Positions 2,665 through 47,180 of a DNA stretch of 64,000 bases are shown here, piece by piece (the stretch's first letter is position 1; each line of letters opens with the position of its first letter). The translations under genes and the position numbers were made by a program. The notes beneath the pieces were generated by a model that saw only the letters and a program-made list of their open reading frames with translations, had not been told where the DNA came from and did not search any database. The stretch spans positions 320,001-384,000 of IMG/VR virus record IMGVR_UViG_3300009031_000221; one strand, written 5' to 3'. Origin of the DNA: a virus (Duplodnaviria; Caudoviricetes).

Positions 2665-2993
2665 GACCTTCTCTTTAGGGATTCAAACGCCGAGTTGAAG
2701 GCTTCTTCGATAGCTGCAGGCAATTCCTTGATGGAGATACCCGTATGATCGGATACTTCTACCGTGATGGGGAACATGAGATCCCCCCAGGACTTATTCA
2801 TTATAACGGGTTGAACGGTGAATAGGCATCCAGGGAATTGCTTCGCCGCTTCCATCAATTGTGCTGCCCCAAGGGTGGTCACTCGAGGAAGAAGATCAAG
2901 CCTATTAGGAGGGATGCAAGGCTCTGCCGCAAGGTATACCTTGTCATCCTTCATGAATGCGCTGTAGGGAAGGTCACCCATGGCTATTACCAA
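2661..2993 (-). CDS. hypothetical protein
   Basis: 110 aa in coupled run. Confidence 0.6.
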   Translation of the reverse strand: MVIAMGDLPYSAFMKDDKVYLAAEPCIPPNRLDLLPRVTTLGAAQLMEAAKQFPGCLFTVQPVIMNKSWGDLMFPITVEVSDHTGISIKELPAAIEEAFNSAFESLKRRS

Positions 2994-3631
2994 TCACTGC
3001 TATCGGTTGCGTTCAATACTTCCTTGGTTACCAAGTCCGTCACGTATACGGCGGTTCCTACACGGCAATCCAAGAACTTGAATTTGAACCGGGAACCTGA
3101 CATGGGCGGGGAAGGATGTGCCGCCAAGGCCTTGGTTGTCCATTCAATGATCCGTTGCATCTCCACACCGCCGACGTGGCAAATGTCAGGGTGACAATCG
3201 GGCAGAGTGCCATAACGATCACGATCAGGTGCCTCAAGGGGTTCCAAACATTCCTCGAGCTTGACTGATAGCTCAATCCCGAACTCTATGTCGGACATGA
3301 GAACCCATACATCCTGTGGCATGTCATGATCCGTTACGATCATTGCCCCGTGCATATAAGCCCTGATGCCTTGATCTATCAGCACCTTTTGGTTTTCAGG
3401 GTCAAAATTATCACGCCAGAACTTCCGCACTTCCGGATAGTTGAACGGGTGCATGACGATATATGCAACTTTGCCATCGCGTCTTTCAATCTCATCCCAT
3501 GCAGGATGAATCTTTTCAGGCCCTAGATGGCGTGAGTCGGCTTTGAAGTCCGGTGCCTGAAGGGCCTTCGCTCGAGCCTTGGTTTTCACAGTATCCATGA
3601 AACTAGAAAATGTGACAGGTTCCGTTACCAT
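2987..3631 (-). CDS. hypothetical protein
   Basis: 214 aa in coupled run. Confidence 0.65.
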   Translation of the reverse strand: MVTEPVTFSSFMDTVKTKARAKALQAPDFKADSRHLGPEKIHPAWDEIERRDGKVAYIVMHPFNYPEVRKFWRDNFDPENQKVLIDQGIRAYMHGAMIVTDHDMPQDVWVLMSDIEFGIELSVKLEECLEPLEAPDRDRYGTLPDCHPDICHVGGVEMQRIIEWTTKALAAHPSPPMSGSRFKFKFLDCRVGTAVYVTDLVTKEVLNATDSSDW

Positions 3632-14222: not shown

Positions 14223-14248
14223 TCTACGCTCGACGGGACAGAAGTAAG
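14223..14248 (-). promoter_or_regulatory. repeated bipartite promoter-like motif
   Basis: plus strand tctacgc-N11-gaagtaag; 21 nt above start 14202. Confidence 0.75.
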
Positions 14249-18953: not shown

Positions 18954-19390
18954 ACGGTAAACACTTCCACCGTGCCGTGGTCAACAACAACCACACAGAT
19001 GGCGTCAGGGCCTGCATCCAGCATCTTCTGCTTCGTATCGGGGTCAATGTGACCTACGATGGTCGTCATGCCTTCACGGGCTGCCAAGCCTCGAGCGAAA
19101 GGAACTTGCCCTGCATCTCGCACCGCCTGCCAATCGAATCCAGGCATGAGGGCGTCCGCGATCTCGGCTCCGTAAGGGGCATCGACATGAATCAGGACGA
19201 TGCACACTTCGCTGGGGGAATTGCCCAGATCCTTGATGCGCTGAATGAAGTGCTGCACACGATCGAGTTGGATGTCCATCGTGTTGAAACAGTTGTGCTT
19301 GGCTACTGCCTTGAATAAGGCAAGAGCATCCGGGTCATCCAGATACAGTTCGCCAGTCTCTGGGTGTTTACGTACAACGGCCTGGGTCAT
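18950..19390 (-). CDS. hypothetical protein
   Basis: 146 aa, GGAGG RBS, below motif at 19408. Confidence 0.65.
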   Translation of the reverse strand: MTQAVVRKHPETGELYLDDPDALALFKAVAKHNCFNTMDIQLDRVQHFIQRIKDLGNSPSEVCIVLIHVDAPYGAEIADALMPGFDWQAVRDAGQVPFARGLAAREGMTTIVGHIDPDTKQKMLDAGPDAICVVVVDHGTVEVFTV

Positions 19391-19407
19391 GGTGTCCTCC
19401 AGGTTGT

Positions 19408-19433
19408 TATACGCACTAGGGGCTAGAAGTAAG
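19408..19433 (-). promoter_or_regulatory. repeated bipartite promoter-like motif
   Basis: tatacgc-N11-gaagtaag, immediately after stop of last array gene. Confidence 0.7.
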
Positions 19434-19434
19434 C

Positions 19435-19680
19435 CTATCGTAGCTCATGATCATATTCATAGATCACGCCCGGGTCAGAATACCGCAGGACGCTGAATTC
19501 ATCCCGCATTATCCAGGTGTTCAATGCATCTACCTGGAGTAGAGAATGATCTGTCCACACTTCACCCTCATTGGATGGCAAGTAGATCCCCCGAAGATCC
19601 TTTCGGTTAGGTTCTGACCTGGGTTCCATGGTGCCTGTGGAAGTATCGAAGGACTTGTTGGTGTCATACCATTGCGTCAT
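19435..19680 (-). CDS. WxDxxK array protein 1
   Basis: MTQWYDTNKSF (start refined). Confidence 0.7.
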   Translation of the reverse strand: MTQWYDTNKSFDTSTGTMEPRSEPNRKDLRGIYLPSNEGEVWTDHSLLQVDALNTWIMRDEFSVLRYSDPGVIYEYDHELR

Positions 19681-19684
19681 AGGG

Positions 19685-19903
19685 TCACCATTTAAGTTTG
19701 TCATCCCAAGGAAGCAAATGGCGGATTGAACTGTCCAGATTATGATAGGTATCCCGAATGCGATGAATCTTCTGATCCGATGCTAGTAACGAGAAATCCT
19801 CGAACACACGCCCTTCGCCCTGAGGAATAGGGTCGGGGTCATTGGATTCTATAGGGTAGCCCGCCTCCCCGAATTCCTTGGTGGTGTCATACCAGCATTG
19901 CAT
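19685..19903 (-). CDS. WxDxxK array protein 2
   Basis: MQCWYDTTKEF (start refined). Confidence 0.7.
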   Translation of the reverse strand: MQCWYDTTKEFGEAGYPIESNDPDPIPQGEGRVFEDFSLLASDQKIHRIRDTYHNLDSSIRHLLPWDDKLKW

Positions 19904-19904
19904 G

Positions 19905-20117
19905 CTAATCGCCCTCATACAGGACAATGACATCCTTATCCAAGACTACATAGGGATCTCGAATGGATCTAACGTGTATTTCGGAATTCGTTATGGAGTA
20001 ATCCGGGAATACACGTCCTTCTGCGGTATCGAATCTATTATCTTCTGCCCCGGCATTCACAGGGTCTAGAGGGCTCGTGGATCCGAATCTTTTGAGGGTG
20101 TCATACCAGCTATTCAT
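19905..20117 (-). CDS. WxDxxK array protein 3
   Basis: MNSWYDTLKRF. Confidence 0.7.
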   Translation of the reverse strand: MNSWYDTLKRFGSTSPLDPVNAGAEDNRFDTAEGRVFPDYSITNSEIHVRSIRDPYVVLDKDVIVLYEGD

Positions 20118-20377
20118 CGTTTGTGCCTATAGAGGTAGCCGGTGCCTACTTGTGGTGTTCCGGATTCCAGTTCTGTATGATCGTTCAGAATCCGCATAAT
20201 GATTCCGAGGGGCTCAGGATCCCAACACTCTACAGTCGTCACATCATCCAAATAGCTTGTTTCACCATCTAATAGGCATGCCCCGGTATCGATAGCGGAA
20301 CTGACACTCGACTTGAATTGCTTGTGCTTGTCCGACCAGTTGTGGCTAAATATCCATGTCTTTTCTAGGTCATTCAT
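20114..20377 (-). CDS. WxDxxK array protein 4
   Basis: NWSDKHKQF (start refined to MNDLEK). Confidence 0.7.
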   Translation of the reverse strand: MNDLEKTWIFSHNWSDKHKQFKSSVSSAIDTGACLLDGETSYLDDVTTVECWDPEPLGIIMRILNDHTELESGTPQVGTGYLYRHKR

Positions 20378-20660
20378 GGGGTTCCACGCTGAAATATCGG
20401 TCATTGCCAAAGCCATCATCATCCGGCACGGATGCAACCTCTAACTTTGTGTCATCGTATAGGTACTGCATGATTACTTCAATCGGGCGTGGATCATCGT
20501 AGTAATCGCTAATATCCTCATCCAAACGATCCATATCTCCCACCACCAACTTGGATACAGAATCTTCCCCCTTGATATTGATGTCCCCTTCAAAGTGCTT
20601 GGACTGATCCGACCAGTTACGGCTGAAGGTGATATTTCTAGCCCTGAGGGAAGTATTCAT
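20370..20660 (-). CDS. WxDxxK array protein 5
   Basis: NWSDQSKHF. Confidence 0.7.
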   Translation of the reverse strand: MNTSLRARNITFSRNWSDQSKHFEGDINIKGEDSVSKLVVGDMDRLDEDISDYYDDPRPIEVIMQYLYDDTKLEVASVPDDDGFGNDRYFSVEPHE

Positions 20661-20929
20661 CAGGTACGCTCATACCTGAGGCTGAATGAACCTAAAGGGA
20701 CCTCCGCCATCTCAAGGGTGGATAGGTCTATCAGGTGTTTCTTGTTGACAGGGATCATGCCATGATCATTTAGACGAGCCTTCATGTCATCCCGTACAAA
20801 GGGATTCTCCCAATTAGACAGCCTTGATGCCGTGTCATCCTCGTAATTCGTAAATGATTCGAACTCTTTGCCTGCATCCGACCATTGGTAGAACGTCGTT
20901 GGGTTTAGACGATACTCGAATTTATTCAT
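20660..20929 (-). CDS. WxDxxK array protein 6
   Basis: QWSDAGKEF (start refined to MNKFEY). Confidence 0.7.
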   Translation of the reverse strand: MNKFEYRLNPTTFYQWSDAGKEFESFTNYEDDTASRLSNWENPFVRDDMKARLNDHGMIPVNKKHLIDLSTLEMAEVPLGSFSLRYERT

Positions 20930-21189
20930 CGGGCACCCTTCCAAATATCACCGGGATCCGCAACCTCTAGGAACGTGTTGTCTGGCAAAGGTATCTTATA
21001 GATGGGGATCAGATCGGGATCGGTTATCCAAGTATTTCTATCGCGTACCGCAAGAATATCTTCCCCCCGGTTCAATCTCGACACGGAATCAAGTCCGAAG
21101 TCCACAGTGGAGTAAAAATGCTTATCACAGTCCGACCAGATGGATCTATGTGTCATGTCACGGGGTTGTTCTAGGCTAATACTACTCAT
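20926..21189 (-). CDS. WxDxxK array protein 7
   Basis: IWSDCDKHF (start refined to MSSISL). Confidence 0.7.
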   Translation of the reverse strand: MSSISLEQPRDMTHRSIWSDCDKHFYSTVDFGLDSVSRLNRGEDILAVRDRNTWITDPDLIPIYKIPLPDNTFLEVADPGDIWKGAR

Positions 21190-21403
21190 GTGGGTGTAGC
21201 AACAATCCTGTGTGGCTGTATTCCTTGATGCGTCCCTCAAGGGGGTTGAGGGCGTCCTCTTGATCCTCCACAGCACCTGAATATTCAGGCACGCCACGGG
21301 TCAAGATGAAACCCTCGGTATCGGCCATGGTCATGCCAATCACCGCACCGTAGCGCTTCAGGTCATCCCACCATACGTTTCTATCTGGTTGTTGTCCGTT
21401 CAT
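21182..21403 (-). CDS. WxDxxK array protein 8
   Basis: VWWDDLKRY. Confidence 0.7.
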   Translation of the reverse strand: MNGQQPDRNVWWDDLKRYGAVIGMTMADTEGFILTRGVPEYSGAVEDQEDALNPLEGRIKEYSHTGLLLHPHE

Positions 21404-21615
21404 ATTGCCTCATAGTCGGCCTTGTCTCGAAGCCTCCGGGGATCGTCATCGCTGTCAAGTTTCCTTGCGTCATGTTCATGGGATATATCCGTGGAGAAAT
21501 CTATTACTGACGATTCATAATCAGGTATGAACTTCTGGTAATGAACCACGCTGCAATTGTTATTGTAGTCATAGCCATAGCGTTTCGTTTGGTCGAACCA
21601 ACTCATTGTTGCCAT
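21400..21615 (-). CDS. WxDxxK array protein 9
   Basis: SWFDQTKRY. Confidence 0.7.
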   Translation of the reverse strand: MATMSWFDQTKRYGYDYNNNCSVVHYQKFIPDYESSVIDFSTDISHEHDARKLDSDDDPRRLRDKADYEAI

Positions 21616-21617
21616 GA

Positions 21618-21833
21618 CTAGTATATCACCTCATCCCGGAGTTTACGCCCGTCATCCATGTTGGATAGCCATCGGCCATCACTTTTCCACAAGGAGTTTG
21701 CGCTACCCTTCATGGAGTTATCATTGAGCGTTTGGTTGTCCCGAAAATAGAGATTGGAGGGAAATACTTTCCCTCCCCCGCGGGATTCCAGGTGGAAGCT
21801 CTTCGATTGATCCGACCATGCCCAGTCTACCAT
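21618..21833 (-). CDS. WxDxxK array protein 10
   Basis: AWSDQSKSF. Confidence 0.7.
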   Translation of the reverse strand: MVDWAWSDQSKSFHLESRGGGKVFPSNLYFRDNQTLNDNSMKGSANSLWKSDGRWLSNMDDGRKLRDEVIY

Positions 21834-22036
21834 GATTCCCCCTTGTCCCGAATCCTTCTAGGGTCATGTTCACCCCCGATTGTCTTAGGTTCCGTTTCCC
21901 AATCGATTTCCCCATCCCCAAAGATCTCTATGAACCCCTTCTCCACGAGGTACCTAGGGTATCGCACCCGCCCTTCCCCATAGGAGTCCCCGCTATACCC
22001 CTTCAAGGAATCAAACCAGGACATACCTTGCATCAT
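21827..22036 (-). CDS. WxDxxK array protein 11
   Basis: SWFDSLKGY. Confidence 0.7.
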   Translation of the reverse strand: MMQGMSWFDSLKGYSGDSYGEGRVRYPRYLVEKGFIEIFGDGEIDWETEPKTIGGEHDPRRIRDKGESW

Positions 22037-22038
22037 AG

Positions 22039-22245
22039 CTATATCGCGTCCCGAAGCATTTTAGGGTCATCCCTAAACTCGAGGATGATTCTGGGTTCTG
22101 CCCTCTCATCGATTTCACAATCTTCATATTCAGATAGGGCATGTCGTCGCTCATCTACTAGGTATCTAGGAGGATGCACCCTTCCTTCCATCCATCCCCC
22201 GGTGAATTTCTTGGCCTGATCTGACCATGCCCATGCTCCAATCAT
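22039..22245 (-). CDS. WxDxxK array protein 12
   Basis: AWSDQAKKF. Confidence 0.7.
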   Translation of the reverse strand: MIGAWAWSDQAKKFTGGWMEGRVHPPRYLVDERRHALSEYEDCEIDERAEPRIILEFRDDPKMLRDAI

Positions 22246-22472
22246 CGGTTTTCCTTCTCATAATTGTCATTGATTCTTCGCCCTTCGTCGAAGATCTCGA
22301 GGGCATCACGTTCCCAGTCAAATTCGGGTTCCGTATCTACATCGTACAAGGATTGATCCCCTAATAGGTAGCGCATAGGGTATACCTTCCCTTCCAACAC
22401 ATCGAAACCAAGCTGTCCTTCTGACGGACAGTAGAAGCGTTTCGTTTGGTCATGCCATGACCTTTCTAGCAT
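22242..22472 (-). CDS. WxDxxK array protein 13
   Basis: SWHDQTKRF (start refined). Confidence 0.7.
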   Translation of the reverse strand: MLERSWHDQTKRFYCPSEGQLGFDVLEGKVYPMRYLLGDQSLYDVDTEPEFDWERDALEIFDEGRRINDNYEKENR

Positions 22473-22732
22473 GATTCGCACACTTCCAAGGAATCATAGA
22501 CAGACTCCTTGTAGGTTGTGTCGTTTATTGTCTTCCCGTGTATCTCTCTATAGCAGGGCAGGATCCAGGTTGTCTTGTCAATGACTAGATTCGGATCCCA
22601 AGTGATAGTGCTAGGGGATTCCAGCATCCCAAATACATGCTCCCATGCCTTTCTAGTATCATTCCATGCCGGGGTCATGACGAAGTACAGGCCTCCGTGG
22701 TTCCCCGTGGAATCGAAATTCAGGTTGATCAT
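22466..22732 (-). CDS. WxDxxK array protein 14
   Basis: AWNDTRKAW (start refined to MINLNF). Confidence 0.7.
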   Translation of the reverse strand: MINLNFDSTGNHGGLYFVMTPAWNDTRKAWEHVFGMLESPSTITWDPNLVIDKTTWILPCYREIHGKTINDTTYKESVYDSLEVCESC

Positions 22733-22983
22733 TGGAAATCCCCCGTACATAGTATATCTTGGAAAAGATCATCAGGCTCCCACGTATCATCTACGTCTCC
22801 ACTTTGAACATGCACATAACGGGGAAAAACACCGCCTGATTTGATGTCGGGATTCTTAGGATACCAGAATATACCGCTAGGGTGCTCGTGCTCCTCATCG
22901 GATCGCTGCCAGCACTTTCCATGTTCACTCCAATACCGATACTCAAATGCCCGAATAGGTTTGTCATGGTCAAGATCTGTCAT
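22729..22983 (-). CDS. WxDxxK array protein 15
   Basis: YWSEHGKCW (start refined to MTDLDH). Confidence 0.7.
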   Translation of the reverse strand: MTDLDHDKPIRAFEYRYWSEHGKCWQRSDEEHEHPSGIFWYPKNPDIKSGGVFPRYVHVQSGDVDDTWEPDDLFQDILCTGDFQ

Positions 22984-23240
22984 GATTCCCAGTCCCCATC
23001 GCATAGCTGCTCTTGACAATGATCCCCAGGTTCCCAATGGTCATCTATAAACCCGCCTTGAGGATGAACATAACGAGGAGATATTATGCCCGTAACACCA
23101 TCAGGGCTCATATGATATGAGTATAGACCACTAGGATTGTCATGTTCTTCCTCGGATAGTTCCCACCGCTTTTCACGTTCATTCCAATAGCGATACGGGA
23201 ACGCCTGAATCGGTTTGTCCTGGTCAAGTTCCGCATACAT
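22980..23240 (-). CDS. WxDxxK array protein 16
   Basis: YWNEREKRW (start refined to MYAELD). Confidence 0.7.
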   Translation of the reverse strand: MYAELDQDKPIQAFPYRYWNEREKRWELSEEEHDNPSGLYSYHMSPDGVTGIISPRYVHPQGGFIDDHWEPGDHCQEQLCDGDWES

Positions 23241-23259
23241 CAGACGCCATCTCCGGATA

Positions 23260-23484
23260 TCAGGGCGTGGTTCCCCCACCCTCTTCATCAACAAGCCTTC
23301 CATCAGGAATATGTGCAAATCGCGGATGGAACTTGTAGGTATGTGGCGCATCTACGTTGGATATGCCACAAAGGATTCCTGTAGGGGATTCCGCATCTAC
23401 AAAAAGCTCAACCCATTCATTGAACCCTTCATACCAATAGCGCTGAGCCCGTGTAGCAGGCGTATCATCAAGGTCATATTGCAT
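23260..23484 (-). CDS. WxDxxK array protein 17
   Basis: YWYEGFNEW (K replaced by N). Confidence 0.65.
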   Translation of the reverse strand: MQYDLDDTPATRAQRYWYEGFNEWVELFVDAESPTGILCGISNVDAPHTYKFHPRFAHIPDGRLVDEEGGGTTP

Positions 23485-23765
23485 TATGACCCCGACCGTT
23501 GTGCACTGACATAGTCCCCAACATACAGAATCTGATGTGTGGCATCATAGGGGCTATGCATCTCCTCAATGAGGTTTCCTGGGGCGTATCTGTAATCGGG
23601 CTGAATTGATCGAATGGCGTAATCGAGACGTTCGCCGTCATCATTAAAAATGCTGCTGGGGGTATCCATAGCCTCTGTCCTATAGAACCAAGTGTGGAAT
23701 TCATCGTTCCAATGCCAAAGCGGTGACGTGAAACTGAATCTCGTAGCGTCAAGATCAGATTGCAT
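23484..23765 (-). CDS. WxDxxK array protein 18
   Basis: HWNDEFHTW (K replaced by H; start refined to MQSDLD). Confidence 0.65.
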   Translation of the reverse strand: MQSDLDATRFSFTSPLWHWNDEFHTWFYRTEAMDTPSSIFNDDGERLDYAIRSIQPDYRYAPGNLIEEMHSPYDATHQILYVGDYVSAQRSGS

Positions 23766-24117
23766 TGCACACCGAAGCTGCTTTTTCCCGTGTCTTCTTC
23801 CGTTTTGCCCTCTCCGCCCTTCTCCGGTTGTCCCCCCGTTTCTTGTACTCTGCATGAAGTGCTTTCAGGGGCTCGAGCATGGAATTGATCCAGGCGATGC
23901 GTTCGGCAGGGAACTTGGTATCGAGCTTTGCTGGCGGAATGCTACCCTTGGCATTGTTGCAAGGGGCACATGCGGGCACGATGTTGCCAATATTGCTATA
24001 GCCACCCAAGGAACGTGGAACCCAGTGGTCGATGGTTATAGGTAGATCTGTACGTCCACAGTAGACACATACATGCCCAAAGTGCTGAAGGGTTGCCTGC
24101 CATGATTTAGCGCTCAT
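23755..24117 (-). CDS. HNH endonuclease
   Basis: CVYCG...TIDHWVPRSLGG...NIVPACAPCNNAKG. Confidence 0.9.
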   Translation of the reverse strand: MSAKSWQATLQHFGHVCVYCGRTDLPITIDHWVPRSLGGYSNIGNIVPACAPCNNAKGSIPPAKLDTKFPAERIAWINSMLEPLKALHAEYKKRGDNRRRAERAKRKKTREKAASVCNAI

Positions 24118-24422
24118 GTGTCATGTTTGGTCCGAACGACCCCTGGACGTTTATTGAAGTGCATATAGGACATACCTGATTCGCAGGATCCTGTAAAGTC
24201 CCCCTGCAGTATCATGTCATCCCCAGGATAGTTATATCCACCAAAGCCTCTGCCCGTATCTACTAAGGGGGCGTGATCCTCATAAATGTACATGGGATGT
24301 ATATCATTGTCATCTAGGAATGTTAGATGCCTATCAAGGACGATCCCGCTGACATCTTCATACCCCCAGGCAGAGCACCACCGCTTACCGATGTCATCCC
24401 AGTTGAATATGCCTTCTCTCAT
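24114..24422 (-). CDS. WxDxxK array protein 19
   Basis: NWDDIGKRW (start refined to MREGIF). Confidence 0.7.
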   Translation of the reverse strand: MREGIFNWDDIGKRWCSAWGYEDVSGIVLDRHLTFLDDNDIHPMYIYEDHAPLVDTGRGFGGYNYPGDDMILQGDFTGSCESGMSYMHFNKRPGVVRTKHDT

Positions 24423-24724
24423 CGGGCTTCCCACTCAGGGCTACGGAGTACCCCCGTGCCATTATGAATGACATAGTATTCGTAGCCGGGTCTATTTTCC
24501 TTCATGCCTGGAAAGTCGTCAATCATTAGAAGATCCTGTGATCCTTGTATGTACCCATTGAGATTAGGGGTTGAATCCTGAATGGGTTGTTTTGGCATGT
24601 CATCGTACATGGGAACGACAGCATTTTCAGCCCATACCCGATTTCCAGATATGATCCCACTGGAATCCTCGTAGCCCATTCCCGGGCGCCATTCCTTCTT
24701 GGATTCGTTCCAATTACGTGTCAT
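24419..24724 (-). CDS. WxDxxK array protein 20
   Basis: NWNESKKEW. Confidence 0.7.
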   Translation of the reverse strand: MTRNWNESKKEWRPGMGYEDSSGIISGNRVWAENAVVPMYDDMPKQPIQDSTPNLNGYIQGSQDLLMIDDFPGMKENRPGYEYYVIHNGTGVLRSPEWEAR

Positions 24725-25017
24725 AGCGTTCTCAACAGGATTGTCAATCCGCCATCCTCATCCCGAATTCGAATGTTACCCCGATTTATGTAACCGTTGT
24801 AATTGTAATCCCCAATCATGAGTCGCTCTTCAGGCATTTTGAAATCCCAAAGCATTGGTTCATCAAAGGGTTTATCCCTCAAGGAGGCTACCGGCAACTC
24901 CACATACAAGGGTTTACTTGTGTTGTCCCTATCCAGGTTAGGGACCTCCCAGAACCCGCTTTCAGGCTTCTGCGAGTAGATCCAAGTCTTGTACTGGTCA
25001 CTCCATTGTTGGCTCAT
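24721..25017 (-). CDS. WxDxxK array protein 21
   Basis: QWSDQYKTW. Confidence 0.7.
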   Translation of the reverse strand: MSQQWSDQYKTWIYSQKPESGFWEVPNLDRDNTSKPLYVELPVASLRDKPFDEPMLWDFKMPEERLMIGDYNYNGYINRGNIRIRDEDGGLTILLRTL

Positions 25018-25226
25018 TGGGGCTCATCATAGAGGCCTTCCTCATTTAGGATGCCTTCAGGAAGGAGGTTTTCTTTGGCGTAGATCGTAGATTCCGCATT
25101 CATCATGCGATGGTTTTTAGCGATGTTTTCTAGCACTGGAGGATTGGGCAATAGGGGCGGGAGCTTGCCTGGAATGGTTGATCCAAAGGCTTTCCATGAA
25201 TCTGCCCAGAAGGTAGTATCCGACAT
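25014..25226 (-). CDS. WxDxxK array protein 22
   Basis: FWADSWKAF. Confidence 0.7.
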   Translation of the reverse strand: MSDTTFWADSWKAFGSTIPGKLPPLLPNPPVLENIAKNHRMMNAESTIYAKENLLPEGILNEEGLYDEPQ

Positions 25227-25456
25227 TATTTGGCCTCCCCATAGAGACCGTCCCGCTTACGGATACTACATTGGATGTTCTCAGGGTCATATCCAAGTAT
25301 GAATCGGGCGTATTCATAGTCGTTAATCTCATGGATGCCTTCATCCAAGATCTGGTTATCCGCTACGATGACCGAAATCCCATCGAAACGCTGAGTGGCA
25401 CCCCAGCATTTCCAAGCATCCCACCATGCCCAATCAGATCTGGATGCTAGCGGCAT
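25226..25456 (-). CDS. WxDxxK array protein 23
   Basis: AWWDAWKCW. Confidence 0.7.
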   Translation of the reverse strand: MPLASRSDWAWWDAWKCWGATQRFDGISVIVADNQILDEGIHEINDYEYARFILGYDPENIQCSIRKRDGLYGEAK

Positions 25457-25680
25457 TCAACATCCTCCTCGTAGAGGTCATCCTCTTCCCGGAGATACCC
25501 CTCAGGCAGCCTTCCACCTTCCCACTGGTTTATGGTCTGGGCATCTACATTGGATATGTCAGCGCGGTCATCATCGCTATGCGTGGGTATATCGGAAAGA
25601 AGGCTTCCACCTTCGGATAGGGACCATGAATTGGCCCATCCTTTCCAATGGTCATACCAAACACGCCTATGGGATCTCAC
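25447..25680 (-). CDS. WxDxxK array protein 24
   Basis: VWYDHWKGW; GTG start overlaps the ATPase TGA (GTGA). Confidence 0.7.
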   Translation of the reverse strand: MRSHRRVWYDHWKGWANSWSLSEGGSLLSDIPTHSDDDRADISNVDAQTINQWEGGRLPEGYLREEDDLYEEDVECR

Positions 25681-26999
25681 AGCAACTCTTGCGCCCTGGT
25701 CAGGATGATCTCCTGGCATTGTGCGGGAGTCATGCCCTGGGTCTTGGCAACAATAACATTTGCCTCATCATCAGGCAACATGCGCTTTGCCATCTGCAAC
25801 CGACCCTCATCCGTGATGGTGTCAGGCGTGTGCAACGTGCGGTCTACACGGCCCGGACGCGGACGGGTTTCCCCTACCGTGATAGTCCCATCGGATTCCT
25901 GAACAGCCGGGCCACCCAAGGCCTGATCTACCTGATCCAGGTAGTTCGTGGTGATGATGCTCAGCAAACCGTCATTGCTGCCTACACCCTGCAACTGGTT
26001 GAGGAGGAGGTCAAACGTCGGCGGTGTGCCCTTCTGGATGTTCGGCTGCTTTGCAGTACGGGCATTGTAGACGGAATCCAGGTCTTCCAATAGGACAAGG
26101 CAAGGCACGTTCGAACGTGCCATGTCAAATGCACTGGTCAAGTCGGCGTTGGTCATCGACTGGAGGTCAAGCAGGTAGATCGGAATGTCCAAGTCAATGG
26201 CAATGGCCCGAGCCAAGGAGGTCTTGCCCGTACCCGGCCGGCCGTGAACGAGGTAGCCACGCCGCCAAGGCAAACGGTGCTCCAAGTACCACTCCTGATT
26301 GGTATTCCACTGGCGGGCATCCTCGAGGATGTGCATGACATCTGCCGGGAGCCAGAGGTCATCCGGCGCCCCCGAGTGCTTCGGATCGCCAATGTCATTG
26401 GGATCCTCGGTCAAGTAGTATGCCGTCGCGGGCTTGTCCGTGAATGGGGAAGATCCACCGTGAGTGGCACGGTCATTGCCTTCCTTTCCGCCATTGCCAC
26501 CATTGCCCCCAACGCGAATCAACTTGTAGCGATTGCGCTTGCGGTCGTTGTTGGTCTTCACGATGTCCCGGAGCATCTGTTCGAAGTCCAACGTGCCGCG
26601 GAAGTAGCGGATGGTCATCTGCGTACCATCCTTGCCACGGTCTACCCATACGGGGATCTTGATCCAACGCTTCTTGATCCAGAAGGTCAAGCCGCCGTCC
26701 TTGTCAAGCCAACGCGACAGAATCCACTGTTGCTTGCGCTTTGAACGGACGAACTTGGAAATGACCATGTATCCACGGCTTCCCAACTTCGAGGGCTTGG
26801 CAATCAGGCTGAATGCCGTGATCACTTCAGCGGACAAGTCCGCATCTACCTTGGATACGCAAACGAGGTGCGTACTCATGGTGCTGAAGAACGATTTGAT
26901 CCTGTTCCAGAAAGCGATAACCATACCGATGATGGCAGGGATTGCCCATAGCGGCAACCAATCGGGCATGAAGGACTTGAGCATATCCATGGGGGGCAT
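25677..26999 (-). CDS. BCS1-like membrane-anchored AAA+ ATPase
   Basis: N-term TM PLWAIPAIIGMVIAFW; WYLEHRLPWRRGYLVHGRPGTGKT (Walker A with BCS1-like prefix); Walker B LVLLEDLD; RPGRVD. Confidence 0.8.
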   Translation of the reverse strand: MPPMDMLKSFMPDWLPLWAIPAIIGMVIAFWNRIKSFFSTMSTHLVCVSKVDADLSAEVITAFSLIAKPSKLGSRGYMVISKFVRSKRKQQWILSRWLDKDGGLTFWIKKRWIKIPVWVDRGKDGTQMTIRYFRGTLDFEQMLRDIVKTNNDRKRNRYKLIRVGGNGGNGGKEGNDRATHGGSSPFTDKPATAYYLTEDPNDIGDPKHSGAPDDLWLPADVMHILEDARQWNTNQEWYLEHRLPWRRGYLVHGRPGTGKTSLARAIAIDLDIPIYLLDLQSMTNADLTSAFDMARSNVPCLVLLEDLDSVYNARTAKQPNIQKGTPPTFDLLLNQLQGVGSNDGLLSIITTNYLDQVDQALGGPAVQESDGTITVGETRPRPGRVDRTLHTPDTITDEGRLQMAKRMLPDDEANVIVAKTQGMTPAQCQEIILTRAQELL

Positions 27000-27012
27000 T
27001 GGGGCATTCTCC

Positions 27013-27675
27013 TTAGATGGTCATAGCTTGTTGTGCGGTAGCACATGGGTTGAATTCGACATTGGTACGCAGGAACACTTCACTTCGCAGGTCGGTATGG
27101 CAGGGATGCATGAGTTCTACAATTACATTGGTGGCGGCACACCTCGCATCTACATCTACATCATTGGCATAGTAATACGCGGCATACGCCGCAATATTAC
27201 ATGGATGTGCCCAACCTGAGATGTCCTTTTTCTTTTGACCTTCGGCTGATTCCACTGTCCGATCTTCACCGGAGAGCCACTTGTTCGCCCAATCCTTCCA
27301 ATCAACGTCATCCGCTACTTGCAATGCCGTGAGGATGCCAAATCGGACGAATTGTTCCGTTGTGGGGTAAGCGAAGTCTGTGATTTCCTTTGTGAGAGTC
27401 AATTGGGTTGACCCGCCCTTCAAGGGCTCCCTGATGATAGTGCCGTCCGCTTCTGCCTCAAACATCCGTAGGCTGGATGGATTGAAGTTGCCGTGTACCC
27501 CATTCATGAATAGAGCGAGGGCAGGATCCTCGTACCAGTGTAGGAATGATGCAGAACAAAGCCCCTGGCATATGTTACTGTGCCTATGGGCACTAGTTTC
27601 ATACGTTTCCCCGACAAACCATTGAAACCCTCTGAAGGTTTGCATGTTCTTATCAGTTAGCTTGTAAACCTTCAT
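27013..27675 (-). CDS. DUF7666-like phage protein
   Basis: start refined to MKVYKLTD; FQWFVGETY...FLHWYEDPALAL...FEAEADG. Confidence 0.55.
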   Translation of the reverse strand: MKVYKLTDKNMQTFRGFQWFVGETYETSAHRHSNICQGLCSASFLHWYEDPALALFMNGVHGNFNPSSLRMFEAEADGTIIREPLKGGSTQLTLTKEITDFAYPTTEQFVRFGILTALQVADDVDWKDWANKWLSGEDRTVESAEGQKKKDISGWAHPCNIAAYAAYYYANDVDVDARCAATNVIVELMHPCHTDLRSEVFLRTNVEFNPCATAQQAMTI

Positions 27676-28025
27676 CACTTCTCCGAAAAGTCTCGTTCGC
27701 ACCATAGGGTCGTCAGTCCGCCATCAGAATTGCCACACCATAGCATCCGGCAAAGCTGCTTGAGCCCGTTCCTGGACGTGCGATGGTCAAACTCCATGCA
27801 CTGCGTAGGGCCAGTGTTGTTGAAGATCTGGATGGCAAAATCGTAAGGGTGAATGGAATCCAGGGAGCGGACATCTTTCGGGGGCTCTGGTACTGCTGGG
27901 GCTTGTACGGGAGCTTGTACGGGGGATTGTACGGCAGCCGGAGCAACCCCCTTGTTCCCGAATAGAATCACCATCACGGCAGCCGTGCCTAATATTGCAG
28001 TGCAGAATGCTAGCAAACCTTTCAT
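27675..28025 (-). CDS. membrane-anchored/secreted protein, paralog of 15817..16080
   Basis: N-term hydrophobic helix, Pro/Ala linker, C-term CRMLWCGNSDGGLTTLWC. Confidence 0.6.
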   Translation of the reverse strand: MKGLLAFCTAILGTAAVMVILFGNKGVAPAAVQSPVQAPVQAPAVPEPPKDVRSLDSIHPYDFAIQIFNNTGPTQCMEFDHRTSRNGLKQLCRMLWCGNSDGGLTTLWCERDFSEK

Positions 28026-28285
28026 TTTCCCGCCCTCTTCAAGCATCCAGGGCAGATCCAGCCCTCAGCTTTGTTGTACTTCCAACCACGATTGACGGCA
28101 TCCGCCTTGATCTTTGGCATGGTCACTTTGCCATCGCAGTCCAATCGATCCCAATCCCCGCATTGGCCGCAGAAGACCTCATAGGCAATACGGATAACGC
28201 CCAGGATAGGGCCTGGGGTGTACCCCTCGCACTTGAACGTGGATTCAGGAAGTTTCAACATGTCCGCAACGCTGATCTCTGTCAT
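28022..28285 (-). CDS. zinc-ribbon hypothetical protein
   Basis: FCGQCG...WICPGC. Confidence 0.6.
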   Translation of the reverse strand: MTEISVADMLKLPESTFKCEGYTPGPILGVIRIAYEVFCGQCGDWDRLDCDGKVTMPKIKADAVNRGWKYNKAEGWICPGCLKRAGK

Positions 28286-28305
28286 AGCGGTATCCTCCAG
28301 GTGGA

Positions 28306-28331
28306 TCTACGCATACCAGTCTAGAAGTAAG
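28306..28331 (-). promoter_or_regulatory. repeated bipartite promoter-like motif heading the ATPase-array operon
   Basis: tctacgc-N11-gaagtaag; 21 nt above start 28285. Confidence 0.75.
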
Positions 28332-28335
28332 CCTA

Positions 28336-28641
28336 TCAGGGACGATCACTCACGATAGCGGAAGTCGGATCACAGTTCGGGTATACCTTGTAGAGCGCTA
28401 TTGGAGTGCCCCGCACGCAATACATGTGCTGACATCCACCGATATAGATGAATCGGCATTGAGGCATCCCGATAGAGGAGGTTCCCTCTGACGGTGGGAT
28501 AGGCGCCAGATGAGAATCAGCCTGCCGCGAGTTCCGATAGGCCACTGCGATTACGAATCCAAATAACATGAATAGAATAGCGATTAGGGTGCGAAACCTA
28601 ACAATCCCGTCCCATACAATGTCCAAGAAGCTGAAGTTCAC
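28336..28641 (-). CDS. membrane-anchored hypothetical protein
   Basis: TM TLIAILFMLFGFVIAVAY; Cys-containing C-term. Confidence 0.55.
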   Translation of the reverse strand: MNFSFLDIVWDGIVRFRTLIAILFMLFGFVIAVAYRNSRQADSHLAPIPPSEGTSSIGMPQCRFIYIGGCQHMYCVRGTPIALYKVYPNCDPTSAIVSDRP

Positions 28642-28681
28642 GGCGTATAATCCTCATCCCCAGGTAATCGGGATTGGACTA

Positions 28682-28707
28682 TCTACGCAGTATCCGCCTG
28701 GATTGAG
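28682..28707 (-). promoter_or_regulatory. degenerate copy of the bipartite motif
   Basis: tctacgc-N11-ggattgag (3 mismatches in second box); 41 nt above start 28641. Confidence 0.35.
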
Positions 28708-47141: not shown

Positions 47142-47180
47142 ATCTACGCTGTCATTCCGAAAAGTAAGCCTTCAAGCTAC
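47142..47180. repeat. 39-bp direct repeat copy A (contains promoter-like motif 47143-47168)
   Basis: atctacgctgtcattccgaaaagtaagccttcaagctac. Confidence 0.8.

Follow-up and report, generated by a model that had tools for sequence, protein, structure and literature searches.

Why would a bacteriophage place a membrane ATPase of the Bcs1 type directly ahead of a long series of miniature genes? The question is raised by a 64,000-nucleotide stretch of viral DNA (the window), comprising bases 320001 to 384000 of the 536,053-bp virus record IMGVR_UViG_3300009031_000221, which is complete according to CheckV. On the minus strand of the window, the gene for a Bcs1-like membrane AAA+ ATPase (25677–26999) is followed by an array of 24 consecutive small genes arranged head to tail (25680–19435), nearly all of whose products carry the motif W-x-[DE]-x-x-K-x-[WFY]. 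Mitochondrial Bcs1 moves the folded Rieske protein across a membrane; to our knowledge, no other well-studied AAA+ protein transports a folded protein in this way, and Bcs1 has one known client. Here we find that motif genes lie directly downstream of the ATPase gene in most of the closely related phage loci examined, and that the ATPases of this lineage have a more basic middle domain than their other homologs. The balance of the evidence leans toward a system in which the ATPase and the array act together in some way.

The first step toward an answer is to establish what kind of machine the ATPase is. Its 440 residues include a hydrophobic stretch at approximately residues 16 to 31, followed by arginine and lysine residues, with a helix modeled at residues 19 to 45. 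Because the positive residues come after this transmembrane (TM) helix, the AAA domain is expected to face the cytoplasm. The remainder of the protein consists of a β-rich middle domain of the Bcs1 type (residues ∼46–165) and a single AAA domain (residues ∼200–440; PF00004, E = 6e-18), whose Walker A segment (G253–T260), Walker B residues (E305/D306), sensor-1 residue (N352), and arginine fingers (R381/R384) are invariant in 60 homologs. An AF2 model built from a 60-sequence alignment has a predicted local distance difference test (pLDDT) value of 91.7 and a predicted template modeling score of 0.84. When this model was submitted to Foldseek, the first 11 matches were full-length Bcs1 structures, followed by YjoB from Bacillus subtilis. 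Likewise, VIA-align superimposes residues 10 to 440 of the model on residues 49 to 440 of yeast Bcs1 (Z of 22.1, root-mean-square deviation of 4.6, 350 residues aligned) and aligns 344 residues with YjoB (Z of 20.3). Only Bcs1 and YjoB chains cover the region beginning at model residue 10 or 46 and extending to residue 200 (Z of 20–22, 326–373 residues), whereas other AAA proteins align over ∼210 residues, from residues 157 to 210 onward. The alignment with 8tp1_A pairs model residues 1 to 440 with residues 3 to 408, reaching the TM region of Bcs1.

At the level of sequence, similarity to Bcs1 is concentrated in the AAA domain. A profile–profile comparison by hhalign of 60 full-length homologs with 20 true Bcs1 proteins aligns residues 201 to 427 (E = 4.9e-54, 34% identity), a region that includes the Bcs1 signatures around Walker A and Walker B, among them LLEDxD, and yields no alignment for the first 200 residues. 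A sequence search of the PDB places Bcs1 among the best matches (E ∼4e-22), level with Cdc48, and the Bcs1 alignment begins 25 to 40 residues before the P-loop. A preliminary description of this DNA had named the protein a BCS1-like membrane AAA+ ATPase and had proposed comparing it with the Pfam families AAA and BCS1_N. The AAA family does match, as given above, whereas BCS1_N (PF08740) has no match at E ≤ 0.01; the name itself holds at the level of architecture, as judged by the TM segment, the fold of the middle domain, and the AAA domain. Thus, a Bcs1 architecture is well supported by the modeled structure, and the ATPase, which is assigned to phrog_7485 (unknown function) in PHROGs, is a fresh member of an already known protein type.

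The comparison with mitochondrial Bcs1 (yeast and mouse; PDB 6sh3, 6uko, 8tp1, and 9gsn) reveals both shared and distinct features. Both proteins have a TM anchor, the same middle-domain fold, a single AAA domain with LLEDxD, and no aromatic pore loop. However, the middle domain of the phage protein has no detectable sequence similarity to that of Bcs1, it is encoded by a phage and its client cannot be the Rieske protein, and downstream of its gene stands an array of candidate clients that has no equivalent at Bcs1 genes. A further difference is an insertion of ∼18 residues (∼362–380), modeled as a β-hairpin, between the end of the D-x-A-L helix and the RPGR arginine-finger motif; it is present across the phage Bcs1-like family and absent from mitochondrial Bcs1. 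YjoB (PDB 7w42 and 7w46) is likewise a bacterial AAA+ protein with a Bcs1-like fold in its N domain, but this cellular chaperone is a hexamer, and its gene has no client genes beside it.

The absence of the pore loop bears on what the machine might do. The preliminary description had allowed that the ATPase might unfold the array proteins, which is unlikely because the protein, like Bcs1, has no counterpart of the aromatic pore loop 1 found in threading AAA unfoldases: the phage sequence LQSMTN aligns to LTDSSL of Bcs1, and the W-F residues of the Cdc48 D2 domain fall in a gap. We therefore dropped the unfoldase reading. Membership in the threading families (Cdc48/p97, FtsH, and the proteasomal ATPases) was rejected on the same feature, and the NCBIfam FtsH and PAN matches are far below their cut-offs. 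Anti-phage AAA systems (IetA/IteA, PADLOC) were also set aside, as these gave partial matches in the P-loop region to IetA only (E ∼1e-9, 36 bits), and the NCBIfam IetA match reaches 35 bits against a cut-off of 510.

The second step concerns the small genes. Counted from the ATPase, members 1 to 6 (24 to 19 in the numbering of the preliminary description) occupy 24114–25680 and members 7 to 24 occupy 19435–23765, all on the minus strand. Members 1 to 6 span 25680–25447, 25456–25226, 25226–25014, 25017–24721, 24724–24419, and 24422–24114. Members 7 to 15 span 23765–23484, 23484–23260, 23240–22980, 22983–22729, 22732–22466, 22472–22242, 22245–22039, 22036–21827, and 21833–21618, and members 16 to 24 span 21615–21400, 21403–21182, 21189–20926, 20929–20660, 20660–20370, 20377–20114, 20117–19905, 19903–19685, and 19680–19435. 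The encoded mini-proteins are 68 to 102 residues long, hydrophilic, and rich in Asp, Trp, and Tyr, and they have no TM segment or signal peptide. Their isoelectric points fall between 4.3 and 5.1 in 23 of the 24 cases, and their net charges range from 0 to −13.

The motif sets these proteins apart from the rest of the phage. A six-frame search of the 536-kb genome for the strict form W-x-[DE]-x-x-K-x-[WFY] returned 24 matches, comprising 22 array members and two matches elsewhere; in the remaining two array members, K is replaced by N or H. A 17-column hidden Markov model (HMM) of the motif region ranks the 24 members at the top of ∼8,400 open reading frames (ORFs), with other genomic matches at E > 0.6. 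The array with a shared WxDxxK-type motif that was originally proposed is therefore real. Because the D and K positions use synonymous codons (GAC and GAT 10 times each for Asp; AAG 15 times and AAA seven times for Lys), selection acts on the peptide rather than on a DNA repeat. Indeed, nucleotide repeats across the motif region are restricted to stretches of 23 to 42 nucleotides with 60 to 78% identity, and a search for repeats detected neither long nucleotide repeats nor a template/variable pair like that of a diversity-generating retroelement.

The pattern of variation provides clues to how the array arose. Of the 11 members closest to the ATPase, 10 have Trp at position 8 of the motif and member 3 has Phe, whereas the 13 more remote members have Phe or Tyr there. 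This split, together with the fact that neighboring members are most alike, points to growth by stepwise local duplication from two founder types. Additional positions are shared within subfamilies, including PSGI, P-x-Y, and L-x-x-G-D-[FYW] in one and EG[RK]V-x-P and D-P-R-x-[IL]-R-D in another, and such positions common to neighboring members are as expected from local duplication. The array is interrupted once, between members 6 and 7, by a gene for a 120-residue HNH endonuclease (23755–24117, minus strand; PF01844, E = 1.8e-11) that overlaps member 6 through ATGA and member 7 by 10 bases. This gene probably entered by a homing-type insertion and then became a link in the translationally coupled chain.

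Outside this phage group, no relatives of the mini-proteins were found by profile, HMMER, or ESM Atlas searches. A profile of nine array members searched against 5.8 billion proteins returned only proteins of this phage, ESM Atlas offered no usable look-alike for member 14 (whose own model has a pLDDT of 0.32), and PHROGs has nothing for the array proteins. An exhaustive HMMER search with an eight-member subfamily profile recovered those members and, in addition, five long repeat proteins rich in Asp, Gly, and Tyr (for example, of the MopE type, with six to 11 stretches each), which we rejected as driven by composition.

How closely are the two parts joined on the DNA? On the minus strand, the ATPase gene ends with TTG CTG TGA, in which the TGA occupies 25679–25677, and the GTG at 25680–25678 is the start codon of the first array gene, a 77-residue ORF in which WYDHWKGW begins at residue 8. 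The GTGA junction at 25677–25680 is thus present as first described. An in-frame ATG at 25719 could also serve as the start; with the GTG, which is preceded by a weak AAGAG, the W falls at residue 8, the position seen in most members. Within the array, 10 junctions are exact 4-base ATGA or GTGA overlaps, and most of the others lie between −9 and +5. The junction alone says little about a special relationship, however, because 4-base overlaps are common across the genome (e.g., 1654/1657, 11691/11694, 36861/36864, and 39767/39770).

More can be learned from whether the arrangement persists in relatives. A protein search recovered 2,237 ATPase relatives, ∼80 of which are full length, down to 27% identity, and we examined the DNA around eight members of the closest group (47–67% ATPase identity). 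Motif genes are located directly downstream of the ATPase gene in seven of these eight loci, with one to seven copies each. There is one motif gene in L147 (67% identity; GTGA overlap with the ATPase gene) and one in L145 (55%). L144 (66%) has one strict and one off-register motif gene, L146 (66%) has two strict and one off-register, and L003 (47%), from a phage of ∼0.5 Mb, has two or three. L008 (64%) has seven motif genes, and L006 (64%) has seven small genes in a row that show W-x-D forms, including an unannotated one that begins immediately after the ATPase gene. The eighth locus, L002 (59%), has four small downstream genes with no clear motif. Overall, the copy number of motif genes per phage ranges from one to 24. 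In plus-strand ORFs within 2.5 kb downstream of the clade ATPases, a window that misses the motif gene of L147, the pattern W-x-[DE]-x4-[WFY] occurs 18 times against 1.41 expected from the genome background (Poisson P = 2e-14). In L147, the single motif gene is followed not by further array members but by a gene for a 217-residue P-loop protein (2975–3628; GPAGGGKT, with a faint NACHT match).

A maximum-likelihood tree places all array-bearing ATPases in one 16-member clade (support 97/91), whose sister group (P0020-22) is without the motif. Ten relatives with 30 to 37% identity yield one motif match in 14,913 residues; these full-length homologs have no array, and their downstream genes appear unrelated on visual inspection. 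Co-occurrence of the ATPase with motif genes, which the preliminary description had proposed to test, is therefore borne out within the 47 to 67% clade and not among the 30 to 37% relatives. Because the L002 lineage is nested inside the clade next to L006, its motif was lost or eroded. A scan of IMG/VR with the single protein found nothing, and alignment scans of IMG/VR and the JGI metagenomes yielded distant relatives only, apart from L089, the same contig as L008. Among the ATPase homologs that are without motif genes, a small gene nonetheless overlaps the ATPase stop codon by four bases in L004 (11368–11550) and in L002 (11332–11547), so that tight coupling to a small downstream gene may predate the W motif.

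No other neighbor recurs around the ATPase when the genes of the window are compared by blastp with the loci of the relatives, and for this reason we regard the ATPase with its motif gene or genes as the only conserved adjacency. The genes that precede the ATPase in the window encode a zinc-ribbon-like protein, a TM protein, and a DUF7666 protein. The zinc-ribbon gene was not found beside the ATPase in relatives, and DUF7666 is absent among their ATPase-upstream genes. Since these three genes are not kept beside the ATPase, they are not part of a conserved module, and we have dropped the idea of a conserved five-part operon. A partial exception to the turnover of neighbors is a TM-plus-Cys mini-protein encoded just upstream of the promoter-like motif of the unit (28641–28336, minus strand; C-x6-GGC-x4-C), of which three paralogs stand in tandem upstream of the ATPase gene in L006 (4053–5865; blastp E = 1e-6 to 8e-6). 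The ATPase-upstream genes of L146 (lipoprotein-like) and L008 (TM protein) are also of an envelope type.

A second feature tracks with the same clade. The net charge of the middle domain (residues 46–165) is +8 to +17 in the 16 clade members (mean of +11.8), with the ATPase of the window the highest at +17, whereas the mean in the other 44 homologs is +5.8. The charge of the AAA part is similar in the two groups (−10.6 in the clade and −9.0 in the others). The nominal P value for the middle-domain difference is 5e-8, which ignores shared ancestry, and thus the difference amounts to approximately one evolutionary event. As judged from these sequences, the clade with the acidic mini-proteins is also the one in which a more basic chamber domain appears. 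The size of the mini-proteins (8–12 kDa) is near that of the folded Rieske domain carried by Bcs1. A complex prediction for ATPase residues 40 to 440 with array member 1, both supplied as alignments, gave a score of 0.00, which counts neither for nor against binding.

The best single reading of these data, which we favor tentatively, is that the mini-proteins are folded cargo handled by the ATPase at the inner membrane. Much as Bcs1 handles the folded Rieske domain, the ATPase ring would take folded mini-proteins into its basic chamber and deliver them to, or across, the inner membrane of the host. The W-x-[DE]-x-x-K-x-[WFY] element would be the part seen by the machine or its chamber, and the variable remainder of each mini-protein could supply a different activity against the host or competitors. 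A stronger version, wherein a Bcs1-type translocase exports diversifying folded mini-proteins across the inner membrane with the W/D/K/aromatic hairpin as their ticket, is unlikely in our estimation. If it were true, the phage would carry an export route independent of Sec and Tat, with a rapidly evolving array of effectors present in one to 24 copies per phage.

Several observations weigh against the cargo reading. The mini-proteins have few cysteines and no features suggesting a periplasmic life. The motif does not hold a fixed position, starting at residues 4 to 23 in the array and at approximately residues 30 to 45 in L006. Moreover, an AF2 model of member 5 (mean pLDDT of 51) forms a β-hairpin from its first ∼10 residues (pLDDT of ∼78), in which W1 and the aromatic residue at position 8, as well as D3 and K6, are paired across strands. 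This prediction, of modest confidence, would explain the conservation of the motif by folding alone, and given these cross-strand pairs the motif may be a structural element of the fold rather than an address tag. The homologs with 30 to 37% identity that are without such genes indicate that the ATPase family must serve some other function or act on other clients, and together with L002 they show that the ATPase is not dependent on the motif family. The array-bearing ATPases form one lineage, so that approximately one evolutionary event stands behind the synteny and approximately one behind the charge difference, and tandem families tend to stay where they arose. The 4-base overlaps, as noted, are routine in this genome.

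It is thus a distinct possibility that there is no direct interplay at all, and that a fast-evolving accessory family (e.g., for host takeover or counter-defense) was duplicated in tandem beside a conserved gene, with the motif as its folding core and the ATPase serving a separate role such as membrane-proximal assembly. The distant homologs without arrays, the L002 locus, the generic overlaps, and the predicted cross-strand pairs all fit this explanation, and the variable motif position and additional subfamily positions suggest a small domain. What argues for a joint function instead is that the adjacency is kept in seven of eight clade loci despite complete turnover of the upstream neighbors, that the charge complementarity arose in the same clade, and that the mini-proteins keep to a narrow range of sizes.

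The same linkage and charge data would also be expected if the mini-proteins were adaptors or regulators, with the hairpin docking on the ATPase and the variable remainder binding host or phage targets or tuning activity, like the interchangeable substrate receptors of other AAA+ adaptor families. A short conserved element joined to a hypervariable remainder fits such a design of docking motif plus variable binder. However, proteins of 68 to 102 residues without a confidently predicted fold (see the values for members 5 and 14) leave little room for both docking and target binding, and their uniform size better fits the limit set by a chamber. We also know of no adaptors for Bcs1 or YjoB. YjoB itself is described in PMC9565160 as a substrate-specific chaperone whose chamber is needed to protect specific folded substrates, i.e., as acting on its substrates directly. 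We consequently regard the adaptor explanation as rather improbable.

Whichever explanation applies, the pairing has consequences for what can be asked. Bcs1-like genes have been noted in large phages without a client or a tested role, and the pairing supplies concrete, clonable candidates of suitable size and opposite charge. If it is functional, it would represent a new viral way to place proteins in the host envelope and would offer 24 divergent clients as a natural series in which to study the recognition of folded cargo. If it is not, the array remains a clear case of birth-and-death evolution in an orphan mini-protein family of a huge phage.

The transcriptional context of the locus bears on a special case of the cargo reading, in which the phage Bcs1 acts at the membrane in head assembly and the mini-proteins are loaded into the capsid and injected. 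Promoter-like motifs at 28306–28331 and 19408–19433, both on the minus strand, have in common GATAGGCTTACTTCTAG-N9-GCGTA. The first (CTTACTT-N11-GCGTAGA) is followed by GGAGG and the ATG at 28285 and opens the unit, as the preliminary description had claimed. It is one of 119 genomic copies of the core CTTACTT-N(10–13)-GCGTA, which match the orientation of the local genes and are dense at 200 to 536 kb and rare in the first 200 kb. The unit carries the general, non-structural promoter class of the phage, a class assignment that has been only partly checked; genome searches with Pfam Phage_capsid and Sigma70_r2, meant to time this class, were uninformative. A candidate late motif, TTCGGT-N7-YTAT, has 10 copies in the genome and none in the unit.

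Translocation of folded proteins in membrane-proximal head assembly has been suggested in general terms for the Bcs1 orthologs of jumbo phages (Iyer, Anantharaman, Krishnan, Burroughs, Aravind 2021, Viruses 13:63, PMC7824862). That paper names no clients, whereas here the ATPase is linked to a candidate client family in a unit with a promoter of the non-structural class. Hence, Bcs1 orthologs in jumbo phages were already reported, and it is the pairing with a candidate client family that appears new. The idea of capsid loading also gains from an analogy. The internal proteins of T4-type phages are encoded by loci of small hypervariable proteins that share only a short conserved terminal address element. 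The T4 capsid targeting sequence is strictly N-terminal and is cleaved by the prohead protease, and its genes are late. In the array, by contrast, the position of the motif varies, no shared cleavage pattern resembling a protease site is seen after it, and the promoter is of the class that dominates the non-structural 200- to 536-kb part of the genome, which disfavors the head-cargo version. The lack of the candidate late motif points in the same direction, and we consider this version very improbable.

The remaining features of the unit concern its extent. In the window, minus-strand copies of the promoter core are located at 14247, 18605, ∼19433, ∼28331, 37482, and beyond, and a search of the whole genome found none between 19433 and 28331. 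The copy at 19408–19433 starts at the last array stop codon (TAG, 19437–19435), which sits within the upstream part of the motif, and it heads a gene at 19390–18950; the first description of this copy as coming right after the array is therefore accurate. The resulting copy-free gap of 8.9 kb is long compared with a genome median of 2.6 kb, and 10 of 87 gaps are equal or longer. Scans for terminators found no terminator-like site closing the unit, and both sigma-70 and terminator scans gave fewer sites than in shuffled sequence. Since no terminator stands out and the last stop codon lies within the next motif, the unit is bounded by promoters only, and read-through from upstream and into downstream genes is possible.

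Genes around the unit are nearly all on the minus strand. Those between the promoter-like motif and the ATPase gene, also on this strand, encode an 87-residue zinc-ribbon-like protein of the form CxxC...CxxC (28022–28285; no Pfam match and a weak match to phrog_9007, E = 3e-4), a 123-residue protein with a single TM helix at its N terminus, a linker of Ala, Pro, and Gln, and a C-terminal part that contains Cys (27675–28046; no family match), and a 230-residue DUF7666 protein (27013–27705; PF24703, E = 2.9e-8, 34.5 bits against a cut-off of 27). ORFs and Pfam matches thus agree with the gene content given in the preliminary description. Of the single operon proposed there, the coupling, the array, and the promoter-bounded unit stand; a single transcript of ∼9 kb is inferred, and the three upstream genes do not form a conserved module with the ATPase. 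Overlaps and promoter spacing of this kind are general in the genome, so that the overlap and the operon together say little about function. The same stretch of DNA was found in four groundwater DNA runs of one study, which may be its source, with no RNA run among the runs listed, and a megablast search of 19400–28700 against GenBank phages gave no match.

Finally, the 119 copies of the promoter-like motif, written as CTTACTT-N11-GCGTAGAT, form two flavors, GACTTACTTT...CAGCGTAGAT and GGCTTACTTCTAG...TGCGTAGAT. Both copies flanking the unit are of the second flavor (GGCTTACTTCTAG...TGCGTAGAT) and are without a hairpin. Downstream of many copies of the motif (e.g., at 47167, 47670, and 48443 in the window) lie a GGGCA...TGCCC hairpin and a ribosome site, AGGAAC.

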